Part shown: positions 51,307 to 57,580 of the stretch, piece by piece
Position numbering within the stretch: the stretch's first letter is position 1
How the letters are laid out: every line of letters starts with the position of its first letter
Source: a virus
Lineage: Duplodnaviria; Heunggongvirae; Uroviricota; Caudoviricetes
Reading direction: 5' to 3' (one strand)
Length of the DNA: 64,000 nt
Virus record (IMG/VR): IMGVR_UViG_2875697941_000001
Made by a program: the position numbers and the translations under genes
The notes under the pieces: model-generated
What the model was told of the DNA's origin: nothing
Seen by the model: the letters and a program-made list of their open reading frames with translations, nothing else
Databases searched by the model: none

Positions 51307-51632
51307 TTCCCGCCTCCCTTTTTCACCAAACTTGTAAGAACATTCAGAATGCTATCGATATTCACTCGTTTCATCCCTGAAATCACCTCATGACCGTTAT
51401 TGCTGGCTATCGTTACCATTAAGTACGTAATTGATAACTCCCAGCCCTCGTGTTGCCCCAATAGGTACGCCACCGCGCCAGCTGTCACTGCAACAAAGAT
51501 CTCCGTAACCAATCCCAACAAATTGCCAGACTGGCGACCGTCTCGGACATCCATCAGGAACGTGCCTATCCCACCAATTACTGAAAGCAGGAGCGCAATA
51601 GCAACTGGAGCTAATTCCTGTGTGTCAAGCAC
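51303..51632 (-). CDS. small membrane protein, holin-like
   Basis: 109 aa, two to three hydrophobic helices; paralogous to 51700-51981. Confidence 0.5.
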   Translation of the reverse strand: MLDTQELAPVAIALLLSVIGGIGTFLMDVRDGRQSGNLLGLVTEIFVAVTAGAVAYLLGQHEGWELSITYLMVTIASNNGHEVISGMKRVNIDSILNVLTSLVKKGGGK

Positions 51633-51699
51633 AAGTTCCCTCCTACGTTGTCAGGAGGTAATGGTATGCAAAGTAACTTCTCAACCGGTCATTTGTTGC

Positions 51700-51981
51700 T
51701 TAAGAGGCATTTCTATTGAGGTACGAATCGATAATCCTTTGTAACTTTTCAAGAATGAGCCTGTTATTGATGCTGCAAATAATAGTCACGCAATTCTGAA
51801 GACTTTCATCCATACCCTTATATTCCGCGAAATACATGCCTATAAAGCCTGCAAGTACGGCAGCAATACACTCGGCCATCAATTGCCTGTATGACGCTTC
51901 GTAACGTTTTTCACGAACCCCATTCAGAAACGAATGCACCCCGCCAAGGATGGAGAGGAGCATTATTGTGAAATCACACAT
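51700..51981 (-). CDS. small membrane protein, holin-like paralogue
   Basis: 93 aa; aligns with 51303-51632 product (LSxxGGxxxFLxxVRxxR...AxxAGxxxxYxxxxG). Confidence 0.5.
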   Translation of the reverse strand: MCDFTIMLLSILGGVHSFLNGVREKRYEASYRQLMAECIAAVLAGFIGMYFAEYKGMDESLQNCVTIICSINNRLILEKLQRIIDSYLNRNAS

Positions 51982-52108
51982 AACTATTTCCTTAATAGTG
52001 AATTAAATATCATTGGGAAACGGTATGTACTTTGTGATTTCCACACATACTGGTTTTTGTTAATTAAAATCCGCAGCTTGCTATAAATAACGATAGTGAG
52101 CAGAAAAT

Positions 52109-52410
52109 ATGCTAATAGGCTATGTACGCGTATCAACAAATGAACAAAACACTGCTTTACAACGAAACGCTCTTGAAAGCGCAGGATGTGAGCTAATTTT
52201 TGAGGACAAGGCGAGTGGAAAAAAGGCTGAACGACCAGAGTGAAAAAGGCTTTTGATAGGTAAACTCTGGTCGTATGAAAGTTAAATTTGCGTGGGTGCA
52301 GCATGCGCTCACTCTTGAGGCATGAACGGTAATCATCTGATAACTTGTAGCTCGATTATCCGGACGCACTGGAACCAGTCGATGCTTCCAGCGATCCAGA
52401 TATTTCATTA
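52109..52410 (+). pseudogene. cin: cin-type serine invertase pseudogene
   Basis: first 43 codons intact ([43 protein letters not shown], catalytic Ser in VRVST) then stop; downstream homology (KKAFDR, TLVV, KLNLRGCSMRSLLRHER) scattered over three frames; C-terminal DNA-binding half absent. Confidence 0.8.
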
Positions 52411-52416
52411 AATGGA

Positions 52417-52827
52417 CTACGCCTCCGGGAACGCTGGCCAATTGACATCTGGTGCAGTGCTGGTATCCGTTGCGGTCACCGCATCGATATAATCCAGCAC
52501 AGCGTTAAGACGGGTGGTTTCAGCCTGCGTAAGATTCCGCCCGGCCTGTAATTTCAGTTGAATAAGACTAATGGAAGCCATTGCGGTATCAATCAGCGAC
52601 TGTTTTTTCTGTTCAGCGTCAGCTACCAGTTCATCATGAGAACGTTCCGGAGTGGGTGGCGCAGTAAATCCCCCGTCTGAATACACCCAGCCGATTCCGG
52701 GCTGCTCACTGATATCAGAAATATTAATGAGCTGCTGATTATCCGGCACTGTGAATTCAGCCTCGCCATCCCAGACAATGACATTCACAACCATCCCATT
52801 TTCAATAACTGCATATGATGTATTCAT
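52417..52827 (-). CDS. tail-fibre assembly protein (U / Tfa)
   Basis: C-terminal RLNAVLDYIDAVTATDTSTAPDVNWPAFPEA matches Tfa signature; start overlaps S stop; track ORF extends to 52851. Confidence 0.8.
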   Translation of the reverse strand: MNTSYAVIENGMVVNVIVWDGEAEFTVPDNQQLINISDISEQPGIGWVYSDGGFTAPPTPERSHDELVADAEQKKQSLIDTAMASISLIQLKLQAGRNLTQAETTRLNAVLDYIDAVTATDTSTAPDVNWPAFPEA

Positions 52828-55800
52828 TATGCAAACTCCTCGATAATACAAATCCCTGCAGCGCCTTTCCCGCCCGTCATACTGGTTCCGCTATAACCGG
52901 CATCGTATGCACCACCGCCGCCCGAACCATATGCCCGACCGATAACGCCACCGCCAGCGCCTGCGCGACCACCGCCCCCCCAGAACGATGATCCTCCTTC
53001 ACCACTGACGCTGATATTTCCGGACTGACCGTCACCTCCATGCCCACCAATAATGCGGACATCACCAGTATTCGGCGCGCCTCCATTACCACCGTTCGTG
53101 TTTGTGACTCCTACTTTCCCGCCGCCTTCACCGCCAGGGGCTATTACCGTTCCGAACGAGCTATCACCGCCCTTGAGGCCGTTCGTCGCACCAACACCGC
53201 CGCCCCCACCTGCGCCGATAGTGACTGGATAACTATTCTGTGTCGGGGTCATTATTGAAATTATTGTCCCACCGGCCCCACCGCCAGCACCGAAAAACGT
53301 CTCGTTATTGGATGTAGCCTGGCAGCCACCACCTCCGCCACCGCCGCCCGTAATTGTGACCCTGATTCGTTTTGTTCCTGGCGTCGGGGTATACGTACCT
53401 GATGAAGTGAAAACCCGGGTATTCACCAAACGCCCAACATATCCGCTTGAATCGCTCAGGCCAAGGTTAGCAGCAGTTAAAGTAATATTTGCAGAACCAT
53501 CAAACTTAACACCGTTGATAGTGCGTGCAGTCTGTAGTTTCGTTGCGGTTGCGGCATTACCGGTAGTGCTCTGATTACCTGCTTTATTCACGCCCGGCAG
53601 GTCGATATTGGCACTACCATCGAATGACACTCCGCCTATTGTGCGTGCTGTTTGCAGTTTTGTTGCAGTTGCAGCATTGCCGGTAGTGCTCTGATTACCT
53701 GTTTTATTCACGCCCGGCAGGTCGATATTGGCACTACCATCAAATGACACCCCGCCGATTGTGCGTACTGTTTGCAGTTTCGTAGCGGTTGCAGCATTGC
53801 CGTTCAAACTACCATTGATGCCGCCAGTAACATTGAGTCCATTACCGATCGTAACAGTACCATTGGCATTGTTAATGATAAGCGGCCTTAAATTATTATA
53901 GGTTCCCAGGCTGTTACCCGAATTGGTCAACATGAAATATGTGTTTGAACCATCGTTTCGGATAAAGAATCCGTAGTTTCCGTAGGCAATGCGCAGACCA
54001 TTCGCCGATTTTGAAATGATCTCACCAGTAGCCGTTAAACCGCCGTTGAGATTTCCTCCGGTTATTGGTAATGCGCCGACATCCGTGGCGGTCGGTTTAA
54101 TGTGCGAACTGTAAATTACATATACAGTTCCATCTGTCAGGCCTGTTGGTTTATTCGCTGTATAAGATGGTGATGTATGAATCGTTACGCTGGCGTTACT
54201 GGTATAATCCCACTGAATATTAACACGTGTGGTGTAATTACCTATTTCAACATAAACATCATAGGTATCACCGGATGTATTCACCCATGCAAAATTAGTA
54301 AATCCAACCGATGTCCGTCGCCATAACGCACCAGTAAGACCTTTTGGATTCCCATTTCCCGCACGAAGAACAAGTTCAGATATACCAGCCTGCATAGGGG
54401 AGTTAACATTATATCCAGAACCACCAATCAGGCTTATGTAAACCACGGAACTGGACTGTGGCATGGTTACAGTTGCCAGCTTGAACCATCCAGTACCACC
54501 ACTAAAAGACATTGTTGTTGAGTTGATCGTGCCTATAGACCTTGGAGTTAGCTCAATGTTTTTAGAACCGTCAAACAACACCCCATTTATAGTTCTAGCG
54601 GTTTGTAACTTGGTCGCTGTCGCTGCATTACCGGATGTATTCTGATTACCCGCAACGTTAACACCAGGTAAATTAATATTCGCAGTACCATCAAAGCTAA
54701 CTCCGCCGATAGTTCTTGCCGTCTGTAGTTTTGTAGCAGTTGCCGCATTGCCAGTTGTATTCTGATTGCCAGTGGCATTCACACCAGGAATGGAGTCCCT
54801 TGATGTATATACCTGCGCCCACGCTGACCATGCCGCATCAGTGTGATCTCTTCGGGAGCGAATGAAAACCGGCGCATGTGCACCGCTCGTACCACTCCAG
54901 CCAATAAGCAACTCGCCCTCACCAGCAGCACTCGCACCTTTCATGTGCAATACGTTGCCATACGCGGTCGGGTAGCTATTGTTGTACGCCTCATACATCT
55001 GCAATCCAGTAGCAGCACCTTGTGTTGTATCGGTGAGCGCAGTAACACGCCCTCTGGACGTAATTGTTGGTATCGAAATGTTCGCAGAACCATCAAACTT
55101 AACACCGTTGATTGTGCGTGCTGTTTGCAGTTTTGTAGCAGTTGCAGCATTGCCGGTAGTGCTCTGATTACCTGCTTTATTCACGCCCGGCAGGTCGATA
55201 TTGGCACTACCATCAAACGACACTCCGCCGATTGTGCGTGCTGTTTGCAGTTTTGTGGCGGTGGATGCATTACCTGTCAAAGATCCACTAAGAGCCACGG
55301 CACTAAGAGACTTAACACTTACATCCTGACCCCATCCGGAAACAACAACCTGACTCCACGCTGTCCAGTTTCCATTAACAACAAAGCGAACGTATATACG
55401 TTTTGTGTCGCTGTTAATCAGCGTTTGCATGTTCGCATAATCTGATCCCGTAGTCTTACGAATCGACTCTACACGAACCAAAAAGTTACCGCTTACGCCG
55501 TCAGGCTTATTGGTAATATTTGCACCACCTGCGACAGTTTTGCATTGATAGTATTTAACGGATCCAGCTTCTGTATTAGCAATAATCAAGTCGTTTAAAT
55601 CAATAGCCCGGCCGTCAATGGCTTCCGGCTCGATGGCTCCTGCTATCCCGGCACTGAATGTAGCAGCGGCTGAAAACGCTGTCTTACCTTTGAAAGTCTG
55701 TTGAGAACTCCAGGTATTAGCTGTGCTCAACAGGGGGATCTTTTCGCCGCTGGTTCCGATTTCTCTTAAACCAAGGTATTGGATAACAGCCAGTGTGCTT

Positions 55801-57134
55801 GTTTTAGCCAGGATATCGCGACCGACTGACGTTAAATCAGTCTGGGAAACAGTGTCTGTACCGGTAAAGTACGGCAATTTATTTGCGCCTGTCGCAAGAC
55901 CAGCAAGCGCGGTTAAAGTTGCATCCAGAGGCTGTTTGCCTGCCAGCGCATTTGTCATTGTTGTCGCAAAGTTCGGGTCATTGCCCAGTGCTGCTGCAAG
56001 CTCATTCAGGGTATCAAGAGCTTCAGGTGATGAGCCGACCAATGCAGAGATAGCAGCTCTTACATAAGCGGTCGTAGCAATCTGCGTGTTATTCGTACCC
56101 TGTGCAGCGGTAGGCGCAGTAGGTATTCCCGTTAATGCAGGACTTGCTAAAGGAGCTTTAAGAGCCAGAGCATTGTTGATAGTTGTGCTGAAATTCGGGT
56201 CGTTATTGATCGCAGCAGCTATTTCTTTAAGCGTATCCAGTGTGCCAGGTGCACCGTTGATAAGTGCCGTTACAGCTGCCTTAACAAAGGCTGTATTTGC
56301 GATCTGCGTGCTGTTTGTACCTTGCGCTGCCGTCGGCGCGGTTGGCGTTCCTGTCAGACTCGGGCTTTCTATTGGCGCTTTGGTATCAGCCAGCTCTTTT
56401 ACAGACTTAACGGCTTTAGGGGTAGCCGCCATTGTTTCGCTGTCGCTGTTAGTTGCGCTACTGAGCTGAACTAATCCCTTTTGTGTTGTGCTTGCATCCT
56501 GCGCCGTATACTTGCTTTTAGCCAGATCGTAGGCTTTTTTAACCGCCAGCGAACTTGCAGCGACATCACTTCTGGTACTGGTTACAGAGTCGGAAATTTC
56601 AATGCCTATCGCGAGATCGATGCGGTCGGATACATCTATCATTTCCTTAGTAATAGCAGATACGCCAGCAGGGATATTCACCGTACAAACAAGCAGTTCC
56701 CCATCTCCTAACTGATATGAATCGGTATAGGTTCTGGCAACAAATTCAGCCGCATGAATATGTGACGCGGTATTAACCTGATAAGAATCTTCTCCAAGGA
56801 GGTATCTTCCCTTCAGCACAATTGCATATTTCTTACCTGCGCTAAGTGCAAGAGAAATATCCTTACGCTGCTGAATAGTTACCTGGTAGAATTCACCAAT
56901 ATTCACTGACGCCGCGCCAGCGGTTTTATCACCATCCACTGAGGTGATTAACAGGTTCATCCCACCGCCAGGCTTAGGAAAAAAACCGGCATAAAATCCA
57001 GGGTCAACAATTCCCCTGAATTTTCGGTTTAGCGCGGCTGACAGATATGGTTCGTGGTATTGCACATCAGCCACCAGAGCCAACGACTCGGGTGATGGGT
57101 AAGTAACCGATGTGACAACTGTAACGTCATTCAT
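52827..57134 (-). CDS. tail-fibre protein S (constant N-part, long variable part with repeats and Gly-rich C-terminus)
   Basis: start taken at in-frame ATG after R-like stop (track ORF extends to 57221); cix-like site at codons 479-487; three blocks of about 34-aa repeats; C-terminal 170 aa about 45 percent Gly. Confidence 0.85.
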   Translation of the reverse strand: MNDVTVVTSVTYPSPESLALVADVQYHEPYLSAALNRKFRGIVDPGFYAGFFPKPGGGMNLLITSVDGDKTAGAASVNIGEFYQVTIQQRKDISLALSAGKKYAIVLKGRYLLGEDSYQVNTASHIHAAEFVARTYTDSYQLGDGELLVCTVNIPAGVSAITKEMIDVSDRIDLAIGIEISDSVTSTRSDVAASSLAVKKAYDLAKSKYTAQDASTTQKGLVQLSSATNSDSETMAATPKAVKSVKELADTKAPIESPSLTGTPTAPTAAQGTNSTQIANTAFVKAAVTALINGAPGTLDTLKEIAAAINNDPNFSTTINNALALKAPLASPALTGIPTAPTAAQGTNNTQIATTAYVRAAISALVGSSPEALDTLNELAAALGNDPNFATTMTNALAGKQPLDATLTALAGLATGANKLPYFTGTDTVSQTDLTSVGRDILAKTSTLAVIQYLGLREIGTSGEKIPLLSTANTWSSQQTFKGKTAFSAAATFSAGIAGAIEPEAIDGRAIDLNDLIIANTEAGSVKYYQCKTVAGGANITNKPDGVSGNFLVRVESIRKTTGSDYANMQTLINSDTKRIYVRFVVNGNWTAWSQVVVSGWGQDVSVKSLSAVALSGSLTGNASTATKLQTARTIGGVSFDGSANIDLPGVNKAGNQSTTGNAATATKLQTARTINGVKFDGSANISIPTITSRGRVTALTDTTQGAATGLQMYEAYNNSYPTAYGNVLHMKGASAAGEGELLIGWSGTSGAHAPVFIRSRRDHTDAAWSAWAQVYTSRDSIPGVNATGNQNTTGNAATATKLQTARTIGGVSFDGTANINLPGVNVAGNQNTSGNAATATKLQTARTINGVLFDGSKNIELTPRSIGTINSTTMSFSGGTGWFKLATVTMPQSSSVVYISLIGGSGYNVNSPMQAGISELVLRAGNGNPKGLTGALWRRTSVGFTNFAWVNTSGDTYDVYVEIGNYTTRVNIQWDYTSNASVTIHTSPSYTANKPTGLTDGTVYVIYSSHIKPTATDVGALPITGGNLNGGLTATGEIISKSANGLRIAYGNYGFFIRNDGSNTYFMLTNSGNSLGTYNNLRPLIINNANGTVTIGNGLNVTGGINGSLNGNAATATKLQTVRTIGGVSFDGSANIDLPGVNKTGNQSTTGNAATATKLQTARTIGGVSFDGSANIDLPGVNKAGNQSTTGNAATATKLQTARTINGVKFDGSANITLTAANLGLSDSSGYVGRLVNTRVFTSSGTYTPTPGTKRIRVTITGGGGGGGGCQATSNNETFFGAGGGAGGTIISIMTPTQNSYPVTIGAGGGGGVGATNGLKGGDSSFGTVIAPGGEGGGKVGVTNTNGGNGGAPNTGDVRIIGGHGGDGQSGNISVSGEGGSSFWGGGGRAGAGGGVIGRAYGSGGGGAYDAGYSGTSMTGGKGAAGICIIEEFA
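53472..53810 (-). repeat. coding tandem repeat block 3 in S (about 3 x 102-117 bp)
   Basis: repeated GNAATATKLQT(A/V)RTIGGVSFDGSANIDLPGVNK(A/T)GNQSTT units, residues about 1138-1250. Confidence 0.7.
54546..54779 (-). repeat. coding tandem repeat block 2 in S (2 units)
   Basis: same repeat family, residues about 815-892. Confidence 0.65.
55062..55274 (-). repeat. coding tandem repeat block 1 in S (2 units)
   Basis: same repeat family, residues about 650-720. Confidence 0.65.
55761..55786. other. cix/gix-like 26-bp crossover site inside S
   Basis: TTCTCTTAAACCAAGGTATTGGATAA resembles Din-family sites (gix/hix type, half sites around central AACCAAGGT); lies at S constant/variable junction. 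Confidence 0.6.
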
Positions 57135-57145
57135 CAAGCATATCC

Positions 57146-57580
57146 TTATGCTGTAGTCGTGTTTATGGCCATAACTGCGGTATATGTTTTGCCCACATAC
57201 AGCGAGTCTTCCTGGACACAAATAATGGCGATTGGCTTGTTCTCGTTATCCAGAACAACCAGAGTGTTGAATGGGTAGTTTTTCCCTTTCTGCAACTGGC
57301 TTTGATCAAGGTCCATTCGGACAGTAATTATCCCGCCTGAGTAGGTTGGGACGAGGTTGATGGTGCAAAATTTACTGGTCAGTTCTGCCAGATCGAAAGC
57401 CTTTGGCAGTTCTCCAATCTCATAAGTGCCATCTCCTTTCTTAGTAACCAGTGAACTGGTACCGAAAACGGCCTTGCTGATTAAAAATCGAGAGCCTTTG
57501 TTAATGGACGATTCAGCGCGCCGCTGATAGTAATAGTCCAACAACTGACTCTTATAGAGGTTTGTTGAGACGTCAGACAT
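57146..57580 (-). CDS. tail-fibre-associated structural protein (P1 R position)
   Basis: 144-aa ORF directly upstream of S. Confidence 0.55.
   Translation of the reverse strand: MSDVSTNLYKSQLLDYYYQRRAESSINKGSRFLISKAVFGTSSLVTKKGDGTYEIGELPKAFDLAELTSKFCTINLVPTYSGGIITVRMDLDQSQLQKGKNYPFNTLVVLDNENKPIAIICVQEDSLYVGKTYTAVMAINTTTA

Follow-up and report, generated by a model that had tools for sequence, protein, structure and literature searches.

The DNA analyzed here is a 64,000-nt stretch (the window, to whose positions all coordinates refer unless another record is named) of the IMG/VR virus record IMGVR_UViG_2875697941_000001. The element is a P1-like phage-plasmid of E. coli, and our subject is its tail-fiber gene S, the variable part of which lies on the minus strand. 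We conclude that this fiber very probably consists of the constant part of the P1 fiber, four modules (A to D), blocks of 40-residue repeats and a glycine-rich tip of the type found in phage Pam3, and that the invertible segment on which P1 depends for switching has been lost, leaving the gene locked in one arrangement. S is assigned to a P1-like phage-plasmid because of the identity of the backbone to P1 and because of the gene order. When P1 was compared with window positions 1-25000 by megablast, the aligned 85% was 98.8% identical, and the genes, read on the minus strand, follow the P1-like order 16, R, S, U, cin remnant, lydC, lydA, lydB, hdf and darA. As expected of a P1-type S gene, S is encoded between R and U and its product has an N-terminus homologous to the P1 constant part, Sc.

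Anatomy of the S fiber

The S gene occupies 52827..57134 (minus strand; 1,435 codons plus the stop codon), with its ATG at 57134 and its stop codon at 52827-52829. A mechanically called open reading frame (ORF) runs uninterrupted to this stop from a TTG at 57221. The true start is the ATG at 57134, directly after the R stop codon, which gives a protein of 1,435 aa beginning MNDVTVV; the same start is called by the NCBI annotation pipeline (PGAP) in the relatives. A long variable region of ~977 codons downstream of a cix-like site had been described in the original prediction. We count ~981 codons past the crossover point, so that the region makes up the distal two thirds of S, compared with 534 for Sv and 519 for Sv' in P1, a ratio of ~1.8. 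The further statement that this length is unusual applies to the comparison with P1 itself and not to the family, in which S-type fibers range from 573 to 1,566 aa; the list of Sc homologues, which shows only proteins shorter than ~800 aa, many of them partial, informs only the lower end of that range.

The constant N-terminal part, Sc (aa 1-449; 55787..57134, minus strand, as for all parts of S given below), contains gp34/gp12-type Phage_fiber_2 repeats (PF03406) and is 96% identical to P1 Sc in amino acids and 94% in nucleotides. At the Sc/Sv junction lies the cix-like site TTATCCAATACCTTGGTTTAAGAGAA (26 bp; 55761..55786), which is in frame, encodes IQYLGLRE and occupies the same codon as P1 cixR. 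The linker that follows (S aa 450-483) is shared with P1, in that the first ~30 codons past cix are common to both. It leads into module A (aa 484-612; 55299..55685), a globular insert absent from P1 Sv, and then into repeat block 1 (aa 613-700; 55035..55298), which has two 40-aa repeats here and three in relatives. Module B (aa 701-786; 54777..55034) is common to P1 Sv and Sv', with 79% amino acid identity, and is followed by repeat block 2 (aa 787-868; 54531..54776), again with two 40-aa repeats and with the most divergent DNA of the blocks. Module C (aa 869-1004; 54123..54530) is globular, matches PHROG tail-fiber families and is also present in Yersinia phages of 37-49 kb at 84-88% amino acid identity. 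Module D (aa 1005-1103; 53826..54122) is of the Gp34_trimer type and occurs in P1 Sv, Mu S and T4 gp34 as well. It scored 99.3 bits against PF21446 (cut-off 27), matched the solved structures of Mu S (5yvq, E 4e-30) and T4 gp34 (4uxe/5nxf, E 3e-20) in the PDB, and is 82% identical to residues 756-823 of P1 S. After repeat block 3 (aa 1104-1221; 53472..53825), with three 40-aa repeats (four in CP119005), the protein ends in the tip (aa 1222-1435; 52830..53471), a TNF-like plus Gly_rich_2 domain presumed to bind the receptor, which starts at the motif NLGLSD. Neither a Pam model nor a direct sequence relative in the PDB was found for the 40-aa repeats or for modules A, B and C. The NCBI name of a relative bearing these modules is "pyocin knob domain-containing."

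The seven 40-aa (120-nt) repeats are arranged in the three blocks as 2+2+3, with starts at S residues 621 and 661, 795 and 835, and 1112, 1152 and 1193. Three blocks of near-identical repeats had indeed been predicted, with a period of ~34 aa; the blocks were borne out, and the period is corrected to 40 aa with a conserved core of ~30 aa. Twenty of 41 aligned positions are invariant among the copies, which follow the motif GNAATATKLQTARTIxGVxFDGSxNI (in shorter form, NAxTAxKLxTxRTI...FDGSxNI). All seven are direct and in frame, and block 3 received a Tandem Repeats Finder score of 474. At the DNA level, block 1 matches block 3 with 87-90% identity over ~200 nt, and block 2 is 70-77% identical to either of them, a similarity far beyond chance. 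The repeat region was found by tblastn in 1,290 phage records, including P1, P7, SSU5, Goslar, 9g and phages of Shewanella, Acinetobacter and Prochlorococcus. A profile of the seven repeats matched the C-terminal spike of Dec, the decoration protein of phage L (6e3c, E 1e-5); the C-terminus of that protein was itself only modelled (PMC6449081). This is, in short, a very common fiber repeat still without a Pfam model or a resolved structure. In the fiber, the repeats would probably make up thin, trimeric stretches of shaft that separate the knobs.

The ratio of nonsynonymous to synonymous substitution rates (dN/dS) was estimated for separate parts of the locus. Compared with CP083706, aa 1-1221 of S gave 0.26 and aa 613-1221 gave 0.11; compared with the related prophage genes described below, the tip gave 0.22 and the downstream gene U gave 0.18. 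Taken with the intact 1,435-codon ORF, these values (0.11-0.26 across shaft, tip and U) indicate that S is a functional gene under purifying selection. The same architecture recurs, with at least 24 complete E. coli genomes carrying at least 80% of the variable region. Module A had the highest dN/dS in the gene (0.40) and is thus its least constrained part. It exists in two allelic forms that share 78% protein identity within fibers otherwise 97-100% identical, and these two observations together suggest either that alleles have been replaced or that this knob is under diversifying pressure.

The glycine-rich tip, its chaperone and the cassette boundary

A C-terminal domain of ~170 aa with about 45% glycine had been proposed. 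The glycine content is lower than this, at 37-38% over ~170 aa (36.5% for the C-terminal 170 aa, and 38% at most in any window of that size), and values of 44-46% are reached only in the densest 50-100 aa. The identification of a glycine-rich domain nevertheless stands: the last ~215 aa scored 41.6 bits against Gly_rich_2 (PF21722; gathering cut-off 24.3), covering profile positions 2-224 of 226. We found 8,215 clusters of this family at 50% identity with E < 1e-3, and in nearly all of the best 150 matches listed the domain was C-terminal. Across 127 family representatives, the glycine motifs are conserved and the intervening loops are variable. An AlphaFold2 model of the tip, made with 126 representatives as the alignment, had a predicted local distance difference test score (pLDDT) of 90.9 overall and of 95-99 in blocks across the domain. 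When this model was compared with the PDB using Foldseek, the Pam3 fiber came first (7ypx; E 8e-9, TM-score 0.65), followed by Bxb1 tail-tip proteins and then by the glycine-rich domains of ALK/LTK. The modelled tip has a beta-sandwich and a lattice of extended glycine-rich strands superposable on 7YPX. A T-even adhesin of the gp38 type (the polyglycine sandwich of S16 gp38, a separate small protein capping gp37, with the 6F45 fold) was also considered and rejected; S16 gp38 was not among the matches listed of either fold search.

Directly downstream of the tip lies U (52417..52827, minus strand; 136 aa), a tail-fiber assembly chaperone gene whose ATG overlaps the S stop codon (TAATG) and whose product matches PF02413 (Caudo_TAP) with an E-value of 3e-22. 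A Tfa-type chaperone gene in this position is what a Pam3-type Gly_rich_2 fiber would be expected to have. The Pam3 fiber carries a TNF-like plus glycine-rich domain (39% glycine) in which the glycine motifs are conserved and the distal loops, proposed to bind the receptor, vary, and it is folded and trimerized by a Mu-Tfa-like chaperone that is not found in virions (PMC9608196). Homology to Pam3 gp24 supports the view, already put forward in the original prediction, that the glycine-rich tip is a receptor-binding or chaperone-dependent module, here putatively a chaperone-associated receptor-binding one. U would most likely fold and trimerize the tip and then leave, as Pam3 gp25 and Mu Tfa do, and the variable loops between the conserved glycine motifs would most likely be the parts that contact the host receptor. 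The whole of S is expected to form a trimer, judging from work on Pam3, Mu and T4. While the fold assignment and the chaperone gene were established here, the trimer structure, the action of the chaperone and receptor binding are what we infer.

Outside the P1-like plasmids, the nearest relatives of the tip are 308-aa proteins, often misnamed "carbohydrate kinase." The gene for the 308-aa fiber is found in E. coli prophages after Mu-type baseplate genes (gp45, gp46, Baseplate_J and gp48), and downstream of it are a 138-aa Caudo_TAP gene, an acyltransferase and an integrase. The tip and U (window positions 53468-52436, 1,033 nt) are 88% identical in DNA to this prophage fiber-chaperone pair, and U is 87% identical in amino acids to the 138-aa chaperone beside the glycine-rich fiber in one such prophage (L008). 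The homology between window and prophage begins exactly at NLGLSD/NLGLGD. In a DNA search of the phage collection, the whole cassette of tip plus U was found only in phage Goslar, at 69%. The comparisons with the prophages support exchange of the tip-U cassette with an unrelated prophage type, in agreement with the modular exchange of receptor-binding domains that had been suggested. Because U matches the full 138-aa prophage chaperone, it is complete despite the "missing N-terminus" label that PGAP gives to U in the relatives. In RefSeq, this flag is attached to the homologues in L001, L002 and L004-L006, though they too match the full prophage chaperone.

A further group of P1-like plasmids, with the invertase intact (P0305/L011), has a different Gly_rich_2 tip joined to Sc directly at cix (..IQYLGLGDASGYVGR); the cassette-boundary sites of L011 are at 7571-7596 and about 9198-9223. 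In the L008 prophage, the fiber junction CTCTCGAAAACCTTGGTTTGGGAGAT (~7268-7300) is a near-complete crossover-like 26-mer, and the tip junction of the window (53455-53480) is a degenerate form of it. No invertase gene was found within the 7 kb examined on either side of the prophage fiber. For PinQ/e14, the crossover sequence is common to that system. Wherever they are attached, then, the tip-chaperone cassettes share a single boundary, LGL(G/S)D, and this boundary is a right half-site of the Din crossover type.

The L011 plasmid, in which cin is intact, has a very small C segment of its own (8256-9215), with a 60-aa ORF after S and then a Caudo_TAP gene of 143 aa in inverted orientation. The space between this gene and cin allows no more than ~365 nt for an alternative Sv', making this switch far more compact than that of P1. 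Short glycine-rich matches on P1-sized contigs were also considered as candidate Sv' cassettes and were rejected as partial gene calls; P0003 is a fragment ending at the end of its contig.

Loss of the switch and variation at the repeat blocks

Homology to P1 covers lydC and the cin promoter, enters cin and breaks off at about Cin codon 72. What remains is a cin pseudogene (52109..52313, plus strand) with 43 codons identical to P1 Cin, followed by a frameshift and a stop codon at 52241-52243. The cixL site, Sv', U' and most of cin have been deleted from the window, so that in place of a Cin/cix invertible segment there is one cix-like site and one Sv-U unit, with no intact serine invertase. 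We found no second cix-like site in the region (the best other match was 17/26) and no inverted repeats of at least 18 nt in 51500-57300. With neither a partner cix nor an invertase, the segment is locked and the solitary cix is a relic. The same deletion and cin remnant are present in all close relatives examined, and a truncated cin was noted earlier for pSvP1 (Venturini et al., PMC6906374). The alternative half of the C segment was lost rather than joined to the half that remains.

Every difference in architecture among the mapped relatives falls at a repeat block. CP097097 (1,475 aa) is >99% identical to the window in this region and has three repeats in block 1, and CP119005 (1,515 aa) has three, two and four repeats, with the extra copies in blocks 1 and 3. 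CP083706 (L004; NZ_CP083706.1, 3430-8127) and CP034959 (L006; NZ_CP034959.1, 2951-7648) both encode fibers of 1,566 aa with an extra module, E, of ~125 aa between block 3 and the tip. One relative (P0123; 1,405 aa) is without module B and has blocks 1 and 2 merged into a single block of five repeats. In another (P0124; 983 aa), Sc, module A, four repeats and the tip remain while B, C and D are gone, which is the product that recombination between block 1 and block 3 would be expected to give. Break points in megablast alignments among the plasmids were located at window positions ~53484, the end of block 3, and ~55262-55277, the start of block 1. As the relatives differ exactly at the repeat blocks, these results support the idea that the repeats act as recombination joints, much as the original prediction had anticipated in calling them recombination substrates. 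The repeat DNA would offer stretches of in-frame homology where exchange can alter the number of repeats, take out or bring in whole modules, and replace the tip cassette. The comparisons between relatives imply that homologous recombination, both at these repeats and at the LGL boundary, changes the length, the module content and the tip of the fiber. The repeat-bounded variation and the transfer of the cassette we take as established here, and it is the frequency of recombination that we infer.

An extension of this idea is that the in-frame 120-nt repeat blocks constitute a contingency locus in the cin-less lineage, recombining either within the plasmid or with prophage fiber genes in the same cell and so yielding fibers that differ in length, modules and tip. 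We offer it tentatively and regard it as doubtful. If it were true, and if such events were frequent enough in a population, the locus would functionally replace the lost Cin switch, and the LGL boundary at the start of the tip cassette would be a remnant of the crossover site from which cassettes of this kind were first mobilized.

We considered several other explanations for this gene. In the original prediction, the repeats were thought possibly to reflect fusion of formerly alternative fiber segments; the long Sv would then be a head-to-tail fusion of Sv and Sv', with the repeat blocks marking old segment boundaries. This we find very unlikely. In its favor, the tip cassette starts at NLGLSD, and since a Gly_rich_2 tip is joined at cix in other P1-like plasmids and the prophage junction is a near-complete crossover-like 26-mer, the tip-U unit does look like a former invertible-segment cassette. 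However, the cixL-Sv'-U' half was deleted together with most of cin and not joined, no sequence specific to P1 Sv' is present, and a single P1 Sv already has the order repeat, B, D, tip. When a palindromic crossover site is constructed from the right half-site of L011, the tip junction of the window agrees with it at only 13 of 24 half-site positions, and the module boundaries are at 40-aa repeats rather than at crossover sites. Long segments, moreover, need no fusion, as MH422554 has an intact invertase with long segments on both sides (S of 1,149 aa and an Sv' ORF of 826 aa). An active multiple-inversion system with internal crossover sites, of the p15B Min or shufflon type, might be invoked instead, given that p15B, a close relative of P1, reportedly has such a system (Sandmeier, Iida and Arber 1992) and that the repeats superficially resemble segment boundaries. 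Such a system is recognized by several crossover sites together with an invertase, whereas here cin is a 44-codon remnant, only one cix-like site is present, inverted repeats of at least 18 nt were absent from 51500-57300, and the seven repeats are all direct and in frame. We therefore rejected this reading for the window and give it practically no credence.

A reading of S as a pseudogene in decay, or as an artifact in the assembly of a defective plasmid prophage, was likewise rejected and seems to us extremely improbable. It could draw on the dead cin, on the view of Venturini et al. (PMC6906374) that such plasmids are switch-impaired, and on PGAP, which flags U as "missing N-terminus" in all relatives and, for CP083706 and CP034959, also calls S a pseudogene and incomplete. 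Yet the ORFs are intact, at 1,435 aa here and 1,566 aa in the two records so flagged, the dN/dS values (0.11-0.26) are those given above, U is not truncated in comparison with the 138-aa prophage chaperone, and the architecture is the same in many independently closed plasmids. Another explanation concerns function: modules A, B and C may be lateral domains that bind receptors or carbohydrates, making the fiber multivalent, with the repeats serving mainly as spacers that set its reach. The "pyocin knob" label, the coming and going of modules between relatives, and the divergence of the two module A alleles with the highest dN/dS in the gene, which would fit selection by host surfaces, all lean in this direction. 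Against it, A, B and C had no family or structure match and were modelled with low confidence (see below), and modules B and D are conserved in P1, the specificity of which is attributed to the distal part of the fiber. The comparable knobs of T4 gp34 are structural (PMC5537660). We consider a multivalent fiber unlikely, and prefer to view S as a composite shaft that ends in a Pam3-type tip.

Several observations weigh against this preferred reading and temper our confidence in it. For S aa 484-1004, which covers modules A-C and their repeats, the AlphaFold2 monomer model made from a 25-sequence alignment had a mean pLDDT of 48. The sole solved-structure match of the repeat is the poorly resolved C-terminus of Dec. 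Comparison of the U sequence with the PDB gave only noise and no match, and NCBIfam has no family for either S or U. Finally, some of the copy-number differences between assemblies could be assembly errors; yet these differences recur among closed, complete plasmids.

Elsewhere in the window, ~15% of positions 1-25000 is without a megablast match in P1, which implies that, compared with P1, sequence has been inserted or replaced here at least once. The P1-like backbone also contains a single tRNA gene (701-776, plus strand) with anticodon CAT, which was called tRNA-Met and could be of the Ile2 type.

Comparison with known fiber systems

Much of what is assembled here was already known: the Gly_rich_2 fold and its dependence on a chaperone, P1-like plasmids without cin, and mosaic fibers. 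Our literature searches found no description of this particular fiber architecture. The analysis leaves the current understanding of tail-fiber evolution unchanged and illustrates, for a single plasmid lineage, how a tail fiber is rebuilt. In a common group of E. coli P1-like plasmids, the fiber tip is recognized as a putative Pam3-type glycine-rich receptor-binding domain with its own chaperone, and the same cassette, often misannotated "carbohydrate kinase," as the fiber tip of widespread prophages. Practical value is modest, although the exact in-frame module boundaries (the 40-aa repeats and the LGL tip motif) could be used to construct chimeric P1 fibers for transduction or delivery vectors.

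The fiber resembles P1 gpS in its operon position, in Sc (96%), in the codon occupied by cix and in the first ~30 codons after it, and it shares with P1, in the same order, one 40-aa repeat, module B (79%) and module D (82%). It differs in that the window has no functional cin, no second cix and no Sv'/U', and so cannot invert. Its variable part is 1.8 times longer, with modules A and C added and seven repeats instead of one, and its tip and chaperone are unrelated to the Mu-like tip and 175-aa U of P1. For the tip, the closest structural parallel is Pam3 gp24/gp25 (7YPX/7YFW, PF21722), with which it has in common the glycine content (37-38% here vs. 39%), the pattern of motifs and loops, and a Tfa-type chaperone gene downstream. 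Pam3 gp24, however, is a minimal fiber of 280 aa with an alpha-helical shaft, whereas the domain described here caps a composite shaft of 1,220 aa; sequence identity between the two is low (phmmer E 0.7), and host and receptor are unrelated. The closest parallel in sequence is the 308-aa fiber with its 138-aa chaperone in E. coli and Shigella prophages, where tip and chaperone are 87% identical in protein and 88% in DNA (over 1,033 nt) to those of the window, and where the TAATG-type overlap of stop and start codons and the LGL(G/S)D cassette boundary are shared. There, in contrast, the tip is carried on a ~95-aa N-terminal baseplate adaptor, without shaft, repeats or knobs.

The knobs-on-shaft design recalls T4 gp34, in which a triple beta-helix carries globular P domains; module D has the Gp34_trimer match, and Sc has the PF03406 alpha-beta repeats of the gp34/gp12 type (PMC5537660). 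Unlike the fiber studied here, gp34 has no receptor-binding function and no glycine-rich tip, and the 40-aa repeats cannot be detected in it by sequence.

Mosaic fibers with recombination at conserved motifs were already known in the early 1990s, from T-even gp37/gp38, P2 H, Mu S, lambda Stf and p15B, and were reportedly described by Haggard-Ljungquist (1992), Sandmeier (1994) and Tetart (1998). The S gene is like these in that conserved in-frame motifs flank variable modules, with swaps, duplications and deletions bounded by the motifs, and in that distal cassettes move together with their chaperone between unrelated phages. It differs from them in that the motif is a specific 40-aa repeat, and in that the comparison was made within a single plasmid lineage, in which repeat copy number varies between plasmids that are >99% identical in this region.

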